The notes under the pieces are model-generated. The model saw only the letters and a list, made by a program, of their open reading frames with translations. It searched no databases and was not told the origin of the DNA. Shown one piece after another: positions 498 through 18,759 of a stretch of 32,000 bases of DNA (position 1 is its first letter; each line of letters opens with the position of its first letter). Both the position numbers and the translations under genes were made by a program. The stretch covers positions 300,001 to 332,000 of the forward strand of contig NC_006576.1 of assembly GCF_000010065.1 (NCBI RefSeq). Reading direction: 5' to 3'. This stretch comes from Synechococcus elongatus PCC 6301 (GTDB taxonomy: Bacteria; Cyanobacteriota; Cyanobacteriia; Synechococcales; Synechococcaceae).

Positions 498-2066
498 TTA
501 GAACAGTCGCCCTCGGCGGCCATCCGGCAGAATCGTCCACCAGTTCGTTTTCGCCATCTTTAGCTGCACCGGCGTCAGCTTGGCACCCCGCAAGTTAGCC
601 CCGCAAAGATTCGTGCCCCGCAGGTTGGCATTGCTCAAAATGGCATCGCTGAGATCTGCCTTCTGCAAATTGGCGAAACTGAGATCGGCGTTGCCAAAGT
701 AGGCCTGATGAAGATTGGCTCGTCGCAAATTGGCGCGGTGGAGATTGGCCTGACCAAAATCTGCACGCTCTAACTGAGCGGCAACAAAGAGCGATTCCTT
801 GAGTTGAGCCCCTTGAAAGTTGACGCTGGGCAACTGTGATTCACTCAGGTCAATCCGGTTGAGCGGTTGCTGACTAAAATCACGCCGTCCACGCTGGTAG
901 GTTGCCAGAATGTCACGGGCATTGAGGCTGAGTCGTCCAGCACTGTTATTGCCCGAGGTATTGCTCGTCCCACCTGTCCAAGCGGCGATTTGCTGTGCAT
1001 CTGCCAGTTGCTCAGGCCGATTGCCACTGCGATCGCGGCGTCGAGCGCGAATGGCCTCAGCTTGACGCTCTTGGGGTGAAGGATAGCCTGATCCGGTTCG
1101 TCCAGAGGAGGGTTTGATCGGCGGGGCACCTGGGGGCAAGGCACTGAGGCCCTGAATCAGACTGTCGTGGTAAGGCTGTAAATCCAGAGCCGTCATCACT
1201 TGCTCAGCTCGTTGGTAGCGATAGCGCACAGAAGCTGCCAACATCTTGCCGAGTACGGTTGCGAGGGCATCACTGACCTGCACCGAATTACGCCACAACA
1301 GCTCGCCAGTAACCGGGTTGTAATCCAGATCTTGAGGGCCTTTCCCGGTCATCAAGAACAGACAGGTCACTCCCAAGGAATAGAGATCGCTGCTGTAGAC
1401 AGGCCGCATGGCAAGTTGCTCGGGCGGCGCATAACCACGGGTGCCGACAGAGAAGGAGGTCAAGGCTGTCAGGCCACTGCCGCCCTGGATTTGACTGACT
1501 TGGTCTTTGACCGCGCCAAAGTCGATCAGGACAAGGCGGCGATCGATGTCGCGGCGGAGCAAATTCGCTGGCTTGATGTCCCGATGAATCACGCCTTGGT
1601 TATGCAAATACTGCAGGAGGGGCAGCAGTTCACTCAGGAATTGCTTGGTCGCTGTTTCGCTATAAACTCCCTGCTCCCGTACTTCCTGCTCAAGAGTTTT
1701 GCCCCGAATATATTCTTGAACTAGATAAAAGCCTTCGGGGGCTTCGAAATAATCCAACAGTGTCGGGACTTGGGGATGGCTGCCAATGCGGCCGAGGGTT
1801 TTGGCCTCCCGCCGGAATAGCTCCCGCGCCATCAGCATAATTTCAGGGTCTTGCACCTGGGGCAGCAGCTGCTTGATGACGCAGAGGGGTTCTCCTGGCA
1901 ACTGGAGGTCTTGCCCAAGATAGGTCGCTCCAAATCCACCCTGGCCGATCGCCTTGACCACGCGGTAGCGATCGCGCAGCAGGAGCGGTGAGCCGCAAGT
2001 GGCGCAGCTGCTGTTAGCGTCGTCGTTATTTGGCTGTCCGCAGTCTGGATTGAGACAGAGAGCCAT
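498..2066 (-). CDS. Ser/Thr protein kinase with an N-terminal 4-Cys motif and C-terminal pentapeptide repeats (SpkB-like architecture)
   Basis: Hanks kinase motifs are present: GQGGFGATY (G-loop), VIKQL (Lys), HRDIKPANLL (catalytic loop), DFG, GTRGYAPPE. The N-terminus reads CLNPDCGQPNN...CATCGSPL (Cys-x4-Cys ... Cys-x2-Cys). The C-terminal 130 aa or so is A(D/N)LxxA(N/D)L pentapeptide repeats. The ORF track starts at 2183, which leaves only 18 bp to divergent pheT. The ATG at 2066 (MALCLNPDC...) is the more plausible start. Confidence 0.9.
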   Translation of the reverse strand: MALCLNPDCGQPNNDDANSSCATCGSPLLLRDRYRVVKAIGQGGFGATYLGQDLQLPGEPLCVIKQLLPQVQDPEIMLMARELFRREAKTLGRIGSHPQVPTLLDYFEAPEGFYLVQEYIRGKTLEQEVREQGVYSETATKQFLSELLPLLQYLHNQGVIHRDIKPANLLRRDIDRRLVLIDFGAVKDQVSQIQGGSGLTALTSFSVGTRGYAPPEQLAMRPVYSSDLYSLGVTCLFLMTGKGPQDLDYNPVTGELLWRNSVQVSDALATVLGKMLAASVRYRYQRAEQVMTALDLQPYHDSLIQGLSALPPGAPPIKPSSGRTGSGYPSPQERQAEAIRARRRDRSGNRPEQLADAQQIAAWTGGTSNTSGNNSAGRLSLNARDILATYQRGRRDFSQQPLNRIDLSESQLPSVNFQGAQLKESLFVAAQLERADFGQANLHRANLRRANLHQAYFGNADLSFANLQKADLSDAILSNANLRGTNLCGANLRGAKLTPVQLKMAKTNWWTILPDGRRGRLF

Positions 2067-2201
2067 GAGCAGGGTGCAGGGAAGAACCAGATCTTCTACA
2101 GTTGCATCCACTTTAGCGGCGATCGCGGCTTCGCAAAGCCCTCCACCCTTTGCCGATAGAATGATTGAGCCGAAACGGGGCACTCAAGGAAGGCGGTTAG
2201 C

Positions 2202-9940: not shown

Positions 9941-11773
9941 TTAACAGCAGCTATATGGCTGAAGCATATCTAATGCTGAACCTCCAATAATTAATGTTTC
10001 TGGAGTTGTTGTGGCAGTAATAACATCACCCATCATTGCATTAGAAGCCTTAAACAGGAGAAGTTCAGTAAAAGAATCACCCATTCCTGGATCTCGCGAT
10101 TCAAAGGTAGTATCAGTTAGGACTCCAGCAATAGCAAAAATATCTGAGATCATTCCAACACTGACAATCACATAATTACCATCACCATCAATGAATGCAG
10201 TACCAACTGAAGATTGAATCGTAAAACCATCAGTTCCTACAATGATAGAGTCGATCGATTCAAAGTCAGTAATGTAATCAAATCCATTCCCGAAGGTGAC
10301 ACTACCATTTTCACCACTTGTCGCTGCGATACCGTCACCTGTTGCCGCAAAGCTAAAAGTGTCTGATCCAAGCCCACCAGTTAAGGTGTCAGCGCCAGTG
10401 CCACCGTTAATCGTATCGCTGTCTGTACCGCCTACGATTGAGTCATTATCATTATTACCTTCAATCAAGTTACTTCCGTTGATTGCGATAATAGTATCAT
10501 TCCCATTACTGCCACTAACTGTGTTGCCAGATCCAGAGATAGTAAAACTAGGATTAATGGCAATCTCGATAGAATCATTACCCATGCCACCATCAATAGT
10601 ATTATTTCCAAATTCAACATTAATGGTGTCACTGCCATCGCCGCCATTAATGGTAGAAGCGGAAAAGCCGAGGATTGAATCATTCCCTAGACCTCCGAGG
10701 AGAGTACTACCAAAACCAATCTCTGTGATGACATCATCATTTTCACCACCATCGATCGAGTTACTGCCAGCGATCGTTCCTTCAATCGTATCGTTACCGC
10801 TCCCACCTAAAATAGTATTACTGTCACCAAAACCTCGAATATTATCGTTACCTGAATCACCGAAGATTGAGTCATTTCCAAGACCACCATCGATCGTGTC
10901 AGCACCATCACCACCTAAAATAGTGTCAGCACCAGCGCCACCATTAATTCTATCGCTGTCTGTACCGCCTACAATTGAGTCATTATTATTATTACCTTCA
11001 ATCAAGTTGTTTCCGCTGATTTCGATAATAGTGTCATTCCCATCACCGCCCAGAATAGTATCGTCTTGATCAGCGCCAGTGAGTCTATCGTCACCTTCAA
11101 ATCCATAGAGCACTGCAGGATTAGTACCTATAGCAGTTAAGGTATCAGCACCGATCGTCCCGATTCCTACAAACAAACCGACACCAACAGAGTCTGTTCC
11201 ATCAAAGACGTTCAGTTCACCGAACAGAGCAGTATCTAGCGCTGTAATCGTTGAGGTTGTTGGCGATCCATTATTAACCGTTCCAGGCATGAGGTTAGTT
11301 GTACCAACCCGTGCGGTTAAAGTGTCACTATCAATATCCTCTGCAGTGAAAGTGATGCTGTTAGCGTCAACAACAGGCCCTGCAGTAATTGTTGGAGCAT
11401 CATTAGTGCCAGCAAGATTAATTGACAATGTCCTCGTCTGAGAGACTGCTCCACGTGAGTCTTTAACAACATAATCAATTGCAATTACTTGAGTATCACC
11501 AAGACCTAAGCTGTCATAGCTAGTATCGTCTTGGTCAAAGGAATAGCTACCATTAGAATTGAGAGTAAATCCTGCTGGAGCTACTTGATTAGGGGCAAGT
11601 AGGAAAGTGATTGGATCACCATTCGGATCACTGGCGATAAGCTGACCGTTAAAAAGACCCGCGTTTTCAGTAAGGTTTTGTGTTTGGCTTTGTGCGATCG
11701 GCTTGCTGTTGAAGTTGAACAGACGTGAAAAGAGCTTGACGAAAGTGAACGCACTGAAATTAAAGGGTGCCAT
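9941..11773 (-). CDS. Large secreted-type calcium-binding repeat protein: N-terminal VCBS/cadherin-like module plus about 20 degenerate RTX (GGxGxDxUx) nonapeptides
   Basis: 610 aa. The N-terminal part reads IASDPNGDPITF...GDTQVIAIDYVVKDSRG...GTNDAPTITAG. The central part reads GGDGNDTI / GGAGADTILGGDGADTIDGGLGNDSIFGDSGNDNI and so on. The C-terminal 150 aa or so is non-repeat (FDYITDFESIDSIIVG...) and ends in SCC. No Sec-type signal peptide is apparent. DNA is about 30-47% G+C in sampled lines, versus about 55-65% in the flanks. An in-frame stop lies 12 nt upstream of the ATG. Confidence 0.85.
   Translation of the reverse strand: MAPFNFSAFTFVKLFSRLFNFNSKPIAQSQTQNLTENAGLFNGQLIASDPNGDPITFLLAPNQVAPAGFTLNSNGSYSFDQDDTSYDSLGLGDTQVIAIDYVVKDSRGAVSQTRTLSINLAGTNDAPTITAGPVVDANSITFTAEDIDSDTLTARVGTTNLMPGTVNNGSPTTSTITALDTALFGELNVFDGTDSVGVGLFVGIGTIGADTLTAIGTNPAVLYGFEGDDRLTGADQDDTILGGDGNDTIIEISGNNLIEGNNNNDSIVGGTDSDRINGGAGADTILGGDGADTIDGGLGNDSIFGDSGNDNIRGFGDSNTILGGSGNDTIEGTIAGSNSIDGGENDDVITEIGFGSTLLGGLGNDSILGFSASTINGGDGSDTINVEFGNNTIDGGMGNDSIEIAINPSFTISGSGNTVSGSNGNDTIIAINGSNLIEGNNDNDSIVGGTDSDTINGGTGADTLTGGLGSDTFSFAATGDGIAATSGENGSVTFGNGFDYITDFESIDSIIVGTDGFTIQSSVGTAFIDGDGNYVIVSVGMISDIFAIAGVLTDTTFESRDPGMGDSFTELLLFKASNAMMGDVITATTTPETLIIGGSALDMLQPYSCC
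10386..10506. repeat. Copy A of a 121-bp intragenic direct repeat (RTX gene)
   Basis: By-eye alignment to 10923..11043 gives about 109/121 identical bases. The offset is 537 bp (179 codons, in frame). It encodes ...NLIEGNNDNDSIVGGTDSDTINGGTGADT... Confidence 0.8.
10923..11043. repeat. Copy B of the 121-bp intragenic direct repeat (RTX gene)
   Basis: Partner of 10386..10506. It encodes ...NLIEGNNNNDSIVGGTDSDRINGGAGADT... Confidence 0.8.
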
Positions 11774-13499: not shown

Positions 13500-13602
13500 C
13501 ACCGCTCCCTTGCGAACGCCCACTCATCTCTTCCCATCAAATCAGTTGGCAGCTCACTCGCTGGCACAATCGAGAGCGAAACAATCGGGCAGGGCAACAG
13601 CG

Positions 13603-14574
13603 ATGAGCATCCGCATGATCGATGTCGGTGATAAGGCGGTCACGGAACGAACAGCGCGGGCTGAAGGTTGGATTCGCCTTGCCCCCGAGGTCTATCAGCG
13701 CGTTACTCAAGGTCAACTCCCCAAGGGCGATGGCTTTTTGCTTGCCCAAGTCGCCGGCATTCAAGGAGCAAAACGCACGGCGGATCTGTTGCCGCTCTGC
13801 CATCCTCTGCCGATCGAAGGGGTGAAAATCGACTGCCAGCCCCTAGCGGATAGCCAAACGATTCGGGTCGAGGCGCGAGTCCGCACCACCGGTAAAACTG
13901 GCGTGGAGATGGAAGCCCTCGCCGCTGTTTCGGCAGCACTGCTCTGTCACTACGACTTAACTAAGATGTTCGACGCGACTGCTGAGATCGGCGGTATTGG
14001 CCTGCTCGAAAAAACGGGTGGCAAGTCGGGTCATTGGCAGCGGCCAGCGATCGCTCCTGATGTAGCCCCAACCGGCGCCTTAGCAGGCGTTTTCGCAACG
14101 GTGACCACGGTCAGCGATCGCGTAGCGGCGGATCAAGCGGAAGATCGCTCAGGGCCACTGATCCAAAACTGGTTAACCGATCAAGCAGCAACGATCGCGA
14201 CTGCAACCTGTGTTGCCGATGAACCGGCTTTGATTCAAGCGGCGATCCAAGCAGCGATTGCTCAAGGATCCGCATTGATTCTTCTGACCGGGGGAACGGG
14301 GCTAGGACCGCGCGATCGCACCCCCGAAGCGATCGCCGATCTAGGTGCCATTCCTGTACCTGGCATTGGTGAAGCGCTCCGCCAAGCCGGGCGATCGGAG
14401 ACGGTAATGACTTGGCTGCCCCGCAGTGGCGGCTGGATGCTTGAGGGCAGTTTCGTGATCGCTTTGCCCGGCAGTTCCCGCGCTGTTAGCAGCGGTTTGG
14501 CGATGTTGCAACCCTTGCTGCCCCACAGTTTGGCAATCTTGAAAGGCGCAGATCATGGAACAGTGAAGGGATGA
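13603..14574 (+). CDS. moaC: Fused cyclic pyranopterin monophosphate synthase MoaC plus MoaB/Mog-type molybdopterin-binding domain
   Basis: The N-terminal half reads MIDVGDKAVTERTARAEG...LLPLCHPLPIEGVKID...TGKTGVEMEAL (MoaC). After a linker (GHWQRPAIAPDVAPTGALAG), the C-terminal half reads TVSDRVAADQAEDRSGPLI...LILLTGGTGLGPRDRTPEA (MoaB/MogA fold). The ATG at 13603 is preferred over the upstream start at 13510. Confidence 0.9.
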   Translation: MSIRMIDVGDKAVTERTARAEGWIRLAPEVYQRVTQGQLPKGDGFLLAQVAGIQGAKRTADLLPLCHPLPIEGVKIDCQPLADSQTIRVEARVRTTGKTGVEMEALAAVSAALLCHYDLTKMFDATAEIGGIGLLEKTGGKSGHWQRPAIAPDVAPTGALAGVFATVTTVSDRVAADQAEDRSGPLIQNWLTDQAATIATATCVADEPALIQAAIQAAIAQGSALILLTGGTGLGPRDRTPEAIADLGAIPVPGIGEALRQAGRSETVMTWLPRSGGWMLEGSFVIALPGSSRAVSSGLAMLQPLLPHSLAILKGADHGTVKG

Positions 14575-16323: not shown

Positions 16324-16338
16324 CAGGTTATTTCTGCC

Positions 16339-16458
16339 TTAGCGGGAATGAGCAGCCAATTGGCGCAGTTTGCGGAGGCGACGTCTGGCCACTTTTGGAG
16401 CTTTAGGACTGTATTTGCGATCAATGAGGATCAAGAGATGGCGATCGATCAGCATCAT
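16339..16458 (-). CDS. Candidate small basic protein (39 aa), below the ORF-track cutoff
   Basis: My translation gives MMLIDRHLLILIDRKYSPKAPKVARRRLRKLRQLAAHSR*. An unusually strong SD (AGGAGGAAGC) lies directly upstream of tandem ATG ATG, 4 and 7 nt from GGAGG. It is convergent with moaA, with its stop 16 nt from the moaA stop. No homolog recognised. Confidence 0.3.
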   Translation of the reverse strand: MMLIDRHLLILIDRKYSPKAPKVARRRLRKLRQLAAHSR

Positions 16459-16589
16459 GGCTTCCTCCTAATCTCAACTCAGGAAAATTTTGCAACTTGA
16501 TTCAACAAACTATCGAGTTTCTGATTACAAGCTGGCCTGCACTTTTATTATGACTCTCTCAAGATATTCAAGAAGATGCCAATGGCAAT

Positions 16590-16649
16590 AATCAATTCAG
16601 CAGAGTAATTGATTTAAGGCAATCTAATTGCAGTTTGGTATTTAGATTG
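16590..16649. repeat. Two adjacent perfect 8-bp inverted repeats in the AT-rich non-coding gap
   Basis: AATCAATT (16590..16597), 9 nt, AATTGATT (16607..16614). Then CAATCTAA (16620..16627), 14 nt, TTAGATTG (16642..16649). The second is followed immediately by a perfect TTGACA at 16646..16651. Confidence 0.6.
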
Positions 16650-16966
16650 ACAATTAAATTTACTTGAGTTTTGCTTTTGCAGTTATCTTGGTTTTTGAGA
16701 TGAGCAAGAGAGGGAATAGTTGCTCGAGTGATCGCTGCTTCTGCCCTCAATTAGCTTGCCACGGGCCGCGACAGACGCTAAATGTCATCAAATCCCTACA
16801 CCCCGCTCGTTGACTTGAGAAAGCAAGCTGTTCAAGGGCTGGGGTACCCTAGTCTCGATTCACAAACCTTTTTTGACGGTGAGTTGTTCTAGTTTTAGGG
16901 CAAAAGTGGTGCTAAAAAACCAGCTGTGGTTCTCACTAATGATGCCAAGAGGAGGCAAATAGAGAA

Positions 16967-17659
16967 ATGCGCTTTCATTTGCGTAGCCGCTCTGGCGAAG
17001 AAATTGTTCTCTATCTGCGGCCTGGTAATCCCTCGGCACCGATTGAGATGGCGGGACCTGCCAATCTCTGTGGCACGGTTTCAACCCTGCTCAAGATGTC
17101 TCTGACTGGTTTGTCGGCCACGTCCGACGACTTACTGAGCCTCTGTGAGTACGATCCAGTCTTTCGCCATTGGTTCCGACTCGACGCTGTTGTCAAAGAT
17201 GGAGATCCAGAGCCAGCCCATCGCGAAGATGCCAAGTTCGCAGCCATGGAGCCGATCTATCCATCCCAAGTGGCGGCCATGCGGCTGGGTGAGCGGCTGA
17301 CTGCAGCGAGTCTGGTGACAAAGGAGCAGCTAGACGAAGCCCTGAAAGGCATTCAAGAGCAGATGCCACACCTACAAATTGGGGAAATTCTCTGCGGGCG
17401 GGGCTACCTCAGTCATAGAACCATGGAGTTTTTCCTCGACCCGATCACCAAGATGAACACGGCTTTTTTGACCCTGCGGCTGGGCGAGCGACTACAAGCA
17501 GCGGGTGTCGTCATCGATCGCGATGTCCATCGCGCCTTGCAATGTCAGCAATGGCTGCCGCTGTCTCTGGGGCGGCTACTGGTGCTGAACGGCGCGGTTT
17601 CGCAGGCCACAGCAGACTTTTTTGGTCGGTTGAGCATTGAGCCGTCCAGCCTGAGCTAA
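16967..17659 (+). CDS. Hypothetical protein with two tandem MshEN/T2SSE_N-like modules (candidate c-di-GMP-binding)
   Basis: GAGGAGG lies 11 nt upstream of the ATG. Residues 106-157 read RLGERLTAASLVTKEQLDEALKGIQ..QIGEILCGRGYLSHRTMEFFL. Residues 171-220 read RLGERLQAAGVVIDRDVHRALQCQ-QWLPL-SLGRLLVLNGAVSQATADFFG. The N-terminal 100 aa has no motif I recognise. Confidence 0.7.
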   Translation: MRFHLRSRSGEEIVLYLRPGNPSAPIEMAGPANLCGTVSTLLKMSLTGLSATSDDLLSLCEYDPVFRHWFRLDAVVKDGDPEPAHREDAKFAAMEPIYPSQVAAMRLGERLTAASLVTKEQLDEALKGIQEQMPHLQIGEILCGRGYLSHRTMEFFLDPITKMNTAFLTLRLGERLQAAGVVIDRDVHRALQCQQWLPLSLGRLLVLNGAVSQATADFFGRLSIEPSSLS

Positions 17660-17664
17660 CCCCC

Positions 17665-18759
17665 ATGAAGAGGCTACAGCTCACACTCACGCGAGGGCAA
17701 TGGCGTCACCTTTGCAAGAGTGCGCTGGGGGTCGTGGTGGCGATCGCGATCGGCAATCAGTTAGATCAGATTCAACCCGACATCTGGAGTTTAAGCGACA
17801 CAACCTGGAGCGCTGTCACCGTCCTCGTTGTCCTGCAGGCCAACTTGGGGGGCTTAGTCAAAGCAAGTACCAGTCGTCTTCAGGGCACCGTCATTGGAGG
17901 AAGCTGCAGCACCTTAGTCGGGTTGCTGCTGGGCTTTTCCCCTTTGAGCGCCGGGCTTTCTGTCTTTCTCTCCTTAGCCTGCTGCTTAACGGCTGGGTTG
18001 AATGATGCTTTGCGGCTAGCGGGTCTAACCAGCTTGATTGTCCAAAGCAGCTTTGCGCTAGGTGTCAGTCAGCCTTGGTTGGTTGGACTGGGACGCTTCA
18101 CCAGCGTCTTAGTGGGGGTCACGATCGCCTTTATCATCTCGCTGCTGCTCTGGCCTCAGCCAGCCTTGCGGCAGCTAGACCAAGAATTGCGATCGCTATT
18201 TGCTGATGCCGCCCAGCTCTACACTGCGTTGAATCTCAACGGCGACCAGGATGAGGCGATCGCAGCGCCGCAGCGCACAGCTGGTATTCAACGGCTCCGC
18301 CAGCATCTCCGACTCAATCGCCAGAGCCTCGATGAGATTCAGCATGAACCTTGGCTCGACCATGACCGTCGTAGCCAGCCCGATCTGCGAGCCCGCGAAG
18401 CCGACACGTTGGTTTTTGCCTTGTATGCCCTGGTGGAGCTCCGGCGCGAAGGTTCCATGCCGCCAGAACTGGAGAGCCCCGATCTCGATTGCTGCATTCA
18501 GCAAGGGCTGCAAAGCCTAGCTCAGAAGCTTTCCCTGCCTGCTGAGATTGGCCAGCAACTCGCTACAGTCCTAAAAGAGCAGGTTGAACATCTCCGCACT
18601 CTACGGCAACGCCGCGCCCTGCGATCGCTTGATGAGGCTGACTTACTGCGCGGCTTGGCATTCCTACAAGAGATCACGCTGATCGGTCGGCTGCTTCTCC
18701 GTTTGGAAGGCCGGCTGGACAATCATCGCTATTGGGATGTGACAGCTGCTAGTGAATGA
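17665..18759 (+). CDS. FUSC / aromatic-acid-exporter-like integral membrane protein
   Basis: 364 aa. The N-terminal half has about 5 hydrophobic helices with a FUSC-like LKSALGVVVAIAIGNQL...TVLVVLQ...RLQGTVIGG pattern. The C-terminal half is a soluble, helical, Leu/Arg/Gln-rich domain. It starts 5 nt after the preceding stop. Confidence 0.7.
   Translation: MKRLQLTLTRGQWRHLCKSALGVVVAIAIGNQLDQIQPDIWSLSDTTWSAVTVLVVLQANLGGLVKASTSRLQGTVIGGSCSTLVGLLLGFSPLSAGLSVFLSLACCLTAGLNDALRLAGLTSLIVQSSFALGVSQPWLVGLGRFTSVLVGVTIAFIISLLLWPQPALRQLDQELRSLFADAAQLYTALNLNGDQDEAIAAPQRTAGIQRLRQHLRLNRQSLDEIQHEPWLDHDRRSQPDLRAREADTLVFALYALVELRREGSMPPELESPDLDCCIQQGLQSLAQKLSLPAEIGQQLATVLKEQVEHLRTLRQRRALRSLDEADLLRGLAFLQEITLIGRLLLRLEGRLDNHRYWDVTAASE

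Follow-up and report, generated by a model that had tools for sequence, protein, structure and literature searches.

A small Synechococcus elongatus protein with two tandem MshEN_N modules and a lineage-specific N-terminal domain is a candidate c-di-GMP receptor of an already catalogued cyanobacterial family

Does the small protein encoded at positions 16967..17659 (+) of the stretch of Synechococcus elongatus PCC 6301 chromosome analysed here (32,000 nucleotides, referred to below as the window) bind c-di-GMP, and through which part of the molecule might it pass such a signal on? Research on the cyanobacterial circadian clock, and on biofilm control in cyanobacteria, has S. elongatus as its main model organism. 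c-di-GMP was recently shown to shift the circadian clock of S. elongatus; the organism carries 20 genes for c-di-GMP turnover, a cellular level of ~120 µM has been reported, and no receptor has been characterised in it (PMC13001216). Predictions of MshEN-type proteins in cyanobacteria go back to 2016 (PMC5013675). In reviews and papers up to 2026, the cyanobacterial MshEN proteins appear without any experimental test, and none of those from Synechocystis has a fully conserved tandem motif. The gene described here, annotated as encoding a 'hypothetical protein', offers a concrete candidate for a c-di-GMP receptor that is small and soluble, and that would be quick and cheap to assay.

The open reading frame is intact, and its translation, with the stop codon included in the coordinates, gives the same 230-residue protein that had been quoted in an earlier note on this DNA. 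A Shine-Dalgarno-like AGGAGG can be read from the sequence at 16950..16955 (+), 11 nt 5' of the ATG. The orthologue in S. elongatus PCC 7942, ABB57311.1, is one substitution apart, and the 90% cluster to which both belong contains S. elongatus proteins only, including those of PCC 7942 and PCC 11801/11802, with all named members annotated as 'hypothetical protein'. Nothing was found in the literature under the presumed tags Synpcc7942_1281 and Synpcc7942_1280, which were inferred from the accession numbering.

Selection was analysed by comparing the gene with that of P0001, an 86–87% identical protein from a different, metagenomic organism. For the gene as a whole dN/dS is ~0.05, with a pN of 0.09 and a pS of 0.70, at which synonymous sites are saturated. 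Taken by part, pN is 0.05 for residues 1–78, 0.09 for the first module (module A) and 0.05 for the second (module B), whereas it rises to 0.24 in a fast-evolving linker at residues 79–104 (17201..17278 (+)), as against about 0.05–0.09 elsewhere. The low values in three parts and the high value in the linker indicate three folded, selected parts and one free linker, and all three folded parts are under strong purifying selection. The linker is also modelled with low confidence by AlphaFold2 (AF2), its residues 84–92 having pLDDT below 50. The architecture is that of a soluble, three-part protein, in which an N-terminal α/β domain and a variable linker are followed by two tandem MshEN_N four-helix bundles (residues 106–160 and 171–223).

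Module A (residues 106–160, 17282..17446 (+)) and module B (residues 171–223, 17477..17635 (+)) were recognised as MshEN_N-like four-helix units with the NCBIfam model NF053729 ('cyclic di-GMP-binding domain-containing protein, MshE-related'; c-di-GMP_motif), which spans 53 positions and has a cut-off of 38 bits. The whole protein matches this model in two stretches with 58.6 bits (E = 3.9e-16), above the cut-off. Scanned singly, module A reaches 37.1 bits (E = 2e-9) and module B 28.1 bits (E = 1.3e-6); both values are significant, yet each lies below 38 bits. The modules also match each other by BLASTP (E = 5e-10, 40% identity). That the protein carries two tandem MshEN-type modules, as the earlier note had proposed, is supported by the two NF053729 stretches together with the family-profile and fold matches to MshE and PilF described below, and its statement that the modules stand apart from any secretion ATPase was borne out as well, there being neither an ATPase nor any other recognisable output domain. 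The label T2SSE_N, on the other hand, has to be dropped. The Pfam check with PF05157 that had been suggested gave no match, and no other Pfam family matched the 230-residue protein even at E ≤ 10; it is the shorter NF053729 that matches instead. PF05157 goes unmatched because the four-helix N subdomain alone is present. There is no MshEN_C (T2SSE_N1) subdomain, as module B comes directly after module A and the protein ends 7 residues past module B. Profile and predicted fold support membership of the MshEN_N domain family; membership of the full T2SSE_N/MshEN domain is not supported, with no Pfam match, MshEN_C subdomain or ATPase.

The modules are composed of paired half-motifs that differ in how closely they follow the consensus. 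In module A, half-motif I occupies residues 106–130 (RLGERLTAASLVTKEQLDEALKGIQ), opening with RLG and reaching its Gln after a one-residue insertion, and half-motif II occupies residues 137–160 (QIGEILCGRGYLSHRTMEFFL at 137–157), opening with QIG and having neither the Arg nor the final Gln. In module B, half-motif I (residues 171–194, RLGERLQAAGVVIDRDVHRALQCQ) runs from RLG to Gln and is followed by the spacer QWLPL, after which half-motif II (residues 200–223, SLGRLLVLNGAVSQATADFFG at 200–220) opens with SLG, has no final Gln and carries Ala and Gly (A216 and G220) at both Leu positions, 17 and 21. Scored over the 11 constrained positions of the strict half-motif, the four give 8/11 and 5/11 in module A and 9/11 and 6/11 in module B. 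The best tandem motif score, 15/22, was equalled by none of 2000 shuffles, the highest of which reached 13, so that the resemblance to MshEN is beyond chance. Wang et al. 2016 also used a relaxed pattern, and none of the four half-motifs passes it; nor does any of them match the strict consensus.

The half-motif spacing is 24-5-24 in module B and 25-6-24 in module A, or 24-7-24 if the insertion is not counted; a 7-residue spacer is also seen in the alignment for G. metallidurans PilB. Module B had been described in the earlier note as fitting the signature with the exact 24-5-24 spacing and module A as a slightly looser copy. The residues, nucleotides and 24-5-24 spacing given for module B are correct, but at 9/11 and 6/11 it fails even the relaxed pattern; the coordinates of module A likewise hold, but the profile ranks A over B. 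Position 3 is Gly in all four half-motifs, and position 2 is Leu or Ile in all four. The ligand-contact set R1/L2/G3/L17/L21/Q24 is incomplete, with R1 and Q24 found in the first half-motifs only. In the second half-motifs of modules A and B, position 1 is Q137 and S200 and position 24 is I160 and S223, respectively.

The predicted fold agrees with the profile assignment. AF2 models residues 100–230 with pLDDT of about 90 or more (above 90 for module A, 86–96 for module B). When a profile of the family alignment was compared with the PDB, it matched PilF (2e-18), residues 6–62 of MshE in 5HTL (1.7e-7) and PilB (~1e-6), and these matches were always confined to the four-helix N subdomain. The top Foldseek matches, 8PKZ, 5HTL and 8PFA, are c-di-GMP-bound structures of PilF GSPII-B and MshE, superimposed with 0.8–1.8 Å rmsd over 46 columns and a probability of 0.89–0.96; the E-values exceed 1 because the matched unit is so short. 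On V. cholerae MshE (5HTL) in particular, the modelled module superimposes with 0.8–0.9 Å rmsd over 46 columns, and MshE likewise forms its four-helix bundle from two 24-residue half-motifs. MshE has a single bundle, followed by the MshEN_C (T2SSE_N1) α/β subdomain and the ATPase, whereas the S. elongatus protein has two bundles and neither of these additions, and the MshE half-motifs score 11/11 and 10/11 as against 8, 5, 9 and 6 of 11.

PilF, the top match by both profile and fold, resembles the S. elongatus protein in having tandem MshEN-type units with graded motif conservation. Its units differ from the S. elongatus modules in retaining the C subdomain and in being carried on a traffic ATPase. 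[quoted passage not shown] A regulatory input of the MshEN_N type away from secretion ATPases is also found at the C-terminus of E. coli NfrB, a c-di-GMP-activated glycosyltransferase, and weak NCBIfam matches to the NfrB and PRK15489 models fall exactly on the module region. NfrB has a single unit fused to an enzyme, whereas no enzymatic output domain is present here.

A HMMER pass over 1.84 billion representatives returned 413 matches at E ≤ 1e-3. In most of the best 150 of these 413 matches, residues 105–220 are aligned as one block, and the matched proteins are small, with 150–230 residues. NF053729 is matched by all 61 of the relatives that were aligned, whose Pfam matches at E ≤ 0.01 do not include PF05157. 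Weak DUF4388 matches in 29 of these relatives were judged to reflect a shared helix-turn-helix-like 'LGE.L...G.I' motif. In the 61-sequence alignment the family pattern is P/R-L-G-x-x-L-x-x-A-G-L ... Q ... G-E-I-L-x-L-R-G-W ... T-x-D-F-F for module A and L-G-x-Y-L-x-x-A-G-L-L ... E-Q ... F-G ... T-x-D-F-F for module B. The columns of T152, F155, F156, T215 and F218-F219 are near-invariant, and each unit ends in T-x-[DE]-F-F. The terminal Gln of the second half-motif, equivalent to MshE Gln61, is not conserved across the family. Position 1 of the second half-motif is Arg or Lys in 40/60 relatives for module A and 51/60 for module B, where the S. elongatus protein has Q137 and S200.

These relatives belong to a group that has been on record for some time. 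Wang et al. 2016 defined the MshEN motif, and their Supplementary Table 4 contains, under 'MshEN_N only, no T2SSE_N1 domain', the architecture '(MshEN_N)2' with Cyanothece cce_1044 (Cyanobacteria), while Synechocystis Sll0547 and Sll1921 appear as predicted binders in their alignments and Table 3 (PMC5013675). Because the cyanobacterial (MshEN_N)2 architecture is already in those tables, the stand-alone tandem arrangement is not new, and the S. elongatus protein is a divergent, domain-extended member of this catalogued family. With domain and architecture both described before, the gain is incremental and will not surprise a specialist. Like the protein studied here, cce_1044, Sll0547 and Sll1921 are small and soluble, consist of two tandem 53-residue MshEN_N units, have no ATPase and carry the common signature G-E-I-L...R-G-W/Y...T-x-[DE]-F-F. 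The S. elongatus protein differs from these three in possessing a structured, conserved N-terminal domain of ~78 residues and no W-[IL]-G tail, and from the cyanobacterial (MshEN_N)2 proteins in opening both first half-motifs with Arg instead of Pro (position 1) and in having lost the position-1 Arg/Lys from both second half-motifs.

The tail in question is present in many cyanobacterial (MshEN_N)2 proteins (P0022, P0043, P0056, P0078, P0084 and P0089 among them), in which a long low-complexity C-terminal extension ends in a conserved D-I-x-W-[IL]-G that could be a short docking peptide; the S. elongatus protein has the N-terminal domain instead. In eight others (P0012, P0013, P0018, P0037, P0044, P0061, P0079 and P0105) the double MshEN_N is fused to TPR arrays, Hpt or a GT28/Alg14-type glycosyltransferase. 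These fusions widen the list of outputs of the double MshEN_N, as would be expected of a regulatory input module.

Our best explanation for the S. elongatus protein, put forward tentatively as something approaching an even chance, is a small second-messenger adaptor in which one or both bundles bind c-di-GMP and relay this to a partner. Binding would take place in the manner of MshE, with contacts from the backbone amides of the RLG glycine to guanine and from the half-motif I Gln to ribose-phosphate, and with hydrophobic residues stacked against the bases. Once occupied by ligand, the bundles would change their orientation with respect to the N-terminal domain, altering its contact with a putative partner. 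A relay by protein–protein contact has also been proposed for CdgR/ComFB, the one family of c-di-GMP receptors that has been characterised in cyanobacteria, whose members are again small and soluble; their fold and sequence family are unrelated, and binding by CdgR is experimental whereas that by the S. elongatus protein is predicted.

Residue comparison and published experiments point both ways on ligand binding, for which reason we regard c-di-GMP binding by at least one module as plausible, though a little short of probable, and the protein as a receptor candidate on that footing. Arg and Gln are still in place in each of the two first half-motifs, the Gln of module A following the one-residue insertion, and the position-3 Gly, whose replacement in MshE abolishes binding, is retained throughout. 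On the other side, Q137 and S200 stand where most relatives have Arg or Lys, the sites of MshE Leu54 and Leu58 are occupied by Ala and Gly in module B, and the terminal Gln is missing from both second half-motifs. The tandem units of PilF provide experimental precedents for the changes at position 1. GSPII-B binds with a KD of 6 nM despite K167 and L196 at the position-1 sites, and GSPII-C binds at about 0.3–0.5 µM with Pro (P335) at position 1 (PMC11731258), so the position-1 Arg is dispensable in those domains. GSPII-A, by comparison, is a natural non-binder with Ser (S39) at position 1 of half-motif II and motif ends that are not Gln (H33 and R62); reversion of Arg to Ser in a resurrected GSPII-A construct abolished binding, the Arg and Gln positions both had to be restored before binding was seen, and in the full-length domain even a perfect consensus did not suffice (PMC12002112). 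Module B shares with GSPII-A the Ser at position 1 of half-motif II, and GSPII-A is in addition devoid of the Gln residues.

If the protein does bind, the degeneracy of both second half-motifs makes a low affinity, in the micromolar range, probable. With cellular c-di-GMP at ~120 µM, low-affinity sites could still be occupied. The degenerate second half-motifs would also make the protein a natural test of which motif positions truly matter.

The same degeneracy may instead mean that the MshEN_N bundles bind no nucleotide at all, as with PilF GSPII-A and Xanthomonas XpsE, and that the protein is a pure protein–protein scaffold with the bundles as structural or docking elements. This is a serious possibility, although we lean towards doubting it. 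It would account for Q137 and S200 in place of Arg/Lys, for second half-motifs without a terminal Gln and for A216 and G220 at Leu positions, and it is in keeping with the score of each module below the NF053729 cut-off. It also draws on GSPII-A, non-binding with S39, H33 and R62 and not rescued by restoration of the consensus alone (PMC12002112), on the observation of Wang et al. that binding has been lost in many MshEN domains (PMC5013675), and on the relative P0008, which keeps the N-terminal domain though one half-motif is entirely lost. What speaks against a scaffold without ligand is that the most critical residues, namely Gly3 in 4/4 half-motifs, Leu2, and the Arg and Gln of the first half-motifs, are under strong selection, and that PilF GSPII-B and GSPII-C tolerate changes at position 1 (PMC11731258).

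The family pattern also bears on the identity of the ligand. Where half-motif II would end in L...L..Q, the family has an invariant T-x-[DE]-F-F, and it deviates from the MshE consensus exactly at the contacts to the second guanine and the ribose-phosphate (T152/T215 and F155-F156/F218-F219). Cyanobacterial (MshEN_N)2 proteins might accordingly recognise something other than c-di-GMP, such as c-di-AMP, cGAMP, (p)ppGpp or a non-nucleotide, and a cyanobacterial receptor that binds both c-di-GMP and c-di-AMP is known in CdgR. We consider this improbable, since no MshEN-type domain is known to favour another ligand, the first half-motifs are canonical and the present data indicate no specific alternative.

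Under the adaptor reading preferred here, the part that would meet the partner is the N-terminal domain, comprising residues 1 to ~78 (16967..17200 (+)) and predicted to consist of three strands, three helices and one further strand. AF2 models it with pLDDT of 77–91 from a shallow alignment of 8 orthologues. Searches against Pfam and NCBIfam gave no family match for the domain, in agreement with the earlier note, which had placed an unknown domain of 100 residues ahead of the modules. No structure in the PDB covers it in Foldseek searches with two AF2 models, and word-index searches with the N-terminal region returned solely a fragment of the same protein. Among the matches listed, it recurs only in four other clusters, P0001, P0002, P0008 and P0090. 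It is this constrained, lineage-specific orphan α/β domain of ~78 residues that constitutes the new element here. Since it is the most conserved part of the protein (pN 0.05), the N-terminal domain is likely the output or partner-binding end.

In P0008 (199 residues; loci L006 613-1212 and L007 239-838), the N-terminal domain is kept while half-motif II of module A is gone, and in its module B a Cys replaces the key Gly. P0008 and P0001 come from the same sequencing run, SRR36496971, so P0008 may be a degenerate paralogue within one organism.

A stronger version of the adaptor reading would make the N-terminal domain a new output domain and the whole protein a low-affinity, two-site c-di-GMP sensor of the S. 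elongatus lineage, tuned to the unusually high cellular c-di-GMP level of ~120 µM and relaying to a partner. As a complete proposal this seems unlikely to us. The partner of such a dedicated sensor might be involved, for example, in the effect of c-di-GMP on the circadian clock, or might be the adjacent FUSC-type membrane protein.

The gene for that membrane protein, of the FUSC/ArAE family (Pfam FUSC, E = 4e-19), lies at 17665..18759 (+) and starts 5 nt past the stop codon of the gene studied here. The 5-nt gap between stop codon and ATG (17657-17667) makes co-transcription of the two genes in S. elongatus probable and suggests translational coupling there. The protein could on this basis be a dedicated regulator of its neighbour, the two forming an operon pair for c-di-GMP-controlled export. 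The close spacing on the same strand is consistent with such a pair, and the adjacency is also present in PCC 7942, where the accessions ABB57310 and ABB57311 are consecutive. The pairing is found within one species only, however, as the orthologues in four other lineages adjoin unrelated genes, and we therefore hold a dedicated FUSC regulator to be very improbable. Because the adjacency is not conserved in other lineages, we leave the FUSC gene out of the system.

The neighbours of the orthologues are a HEAT-repeat gene and a SIS-domain (KpsF-like) gene for P0001, UPF0047 for both P0002 and the MAG locus L004, an ABC/HlyD-type exporter and FolP for P0090, and IspH for P0008. No conserved operon context was found in the five lineages examined, and as the neighbours differ, no output can be inferred from the neighbourhood. 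A scan of genome contigs with the single protein gave no match, and one with a three-sequence alignment gave one MAG locus.

The surroundings in S. elongatus are ordinary chromosome. Upstream are moeA, a moaC-mog fusion, moaD, moaE and moaA; downstream follow the FUSC-family membrane protein, rpmI, rplT, a solute-binding protein and a DUF389 protein. Genes for c-di-GMP turnover are absent from the 32-kb window.

The gap between moaA and the gene studied here (16324-16966) is unusually long at 640 nt, AT-rich (~48% GC) and non-coding, with only short ORFs of ~50 codons on either strand. No c-di-GMP riboswitch or other Rfam match and no terminator-like site was found in it, and promoter-like sites occur at chance level. 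Elsewhere in the window, GC content falls from ~57% to 42–44% between 9900 and 12000, over a gene at 9941..11773 (-) for a 610-residue protein with RTX calcium-binding repeats and a cadherin-like domain; the surroundings are otherwise uniform, and this low-GC stretch resembles an island gained by horizontal transfer. The molybdenum-cofactor cluster includes, at 13510-14574, a 354-residue ORF in which MoaC is fused to MoCF_biosynth (MoaB/Mog-type), and the product of 498-2183 (-) joins a Ser/Thr protein kinase domain to pentapeptide repeats at its C-terminus.
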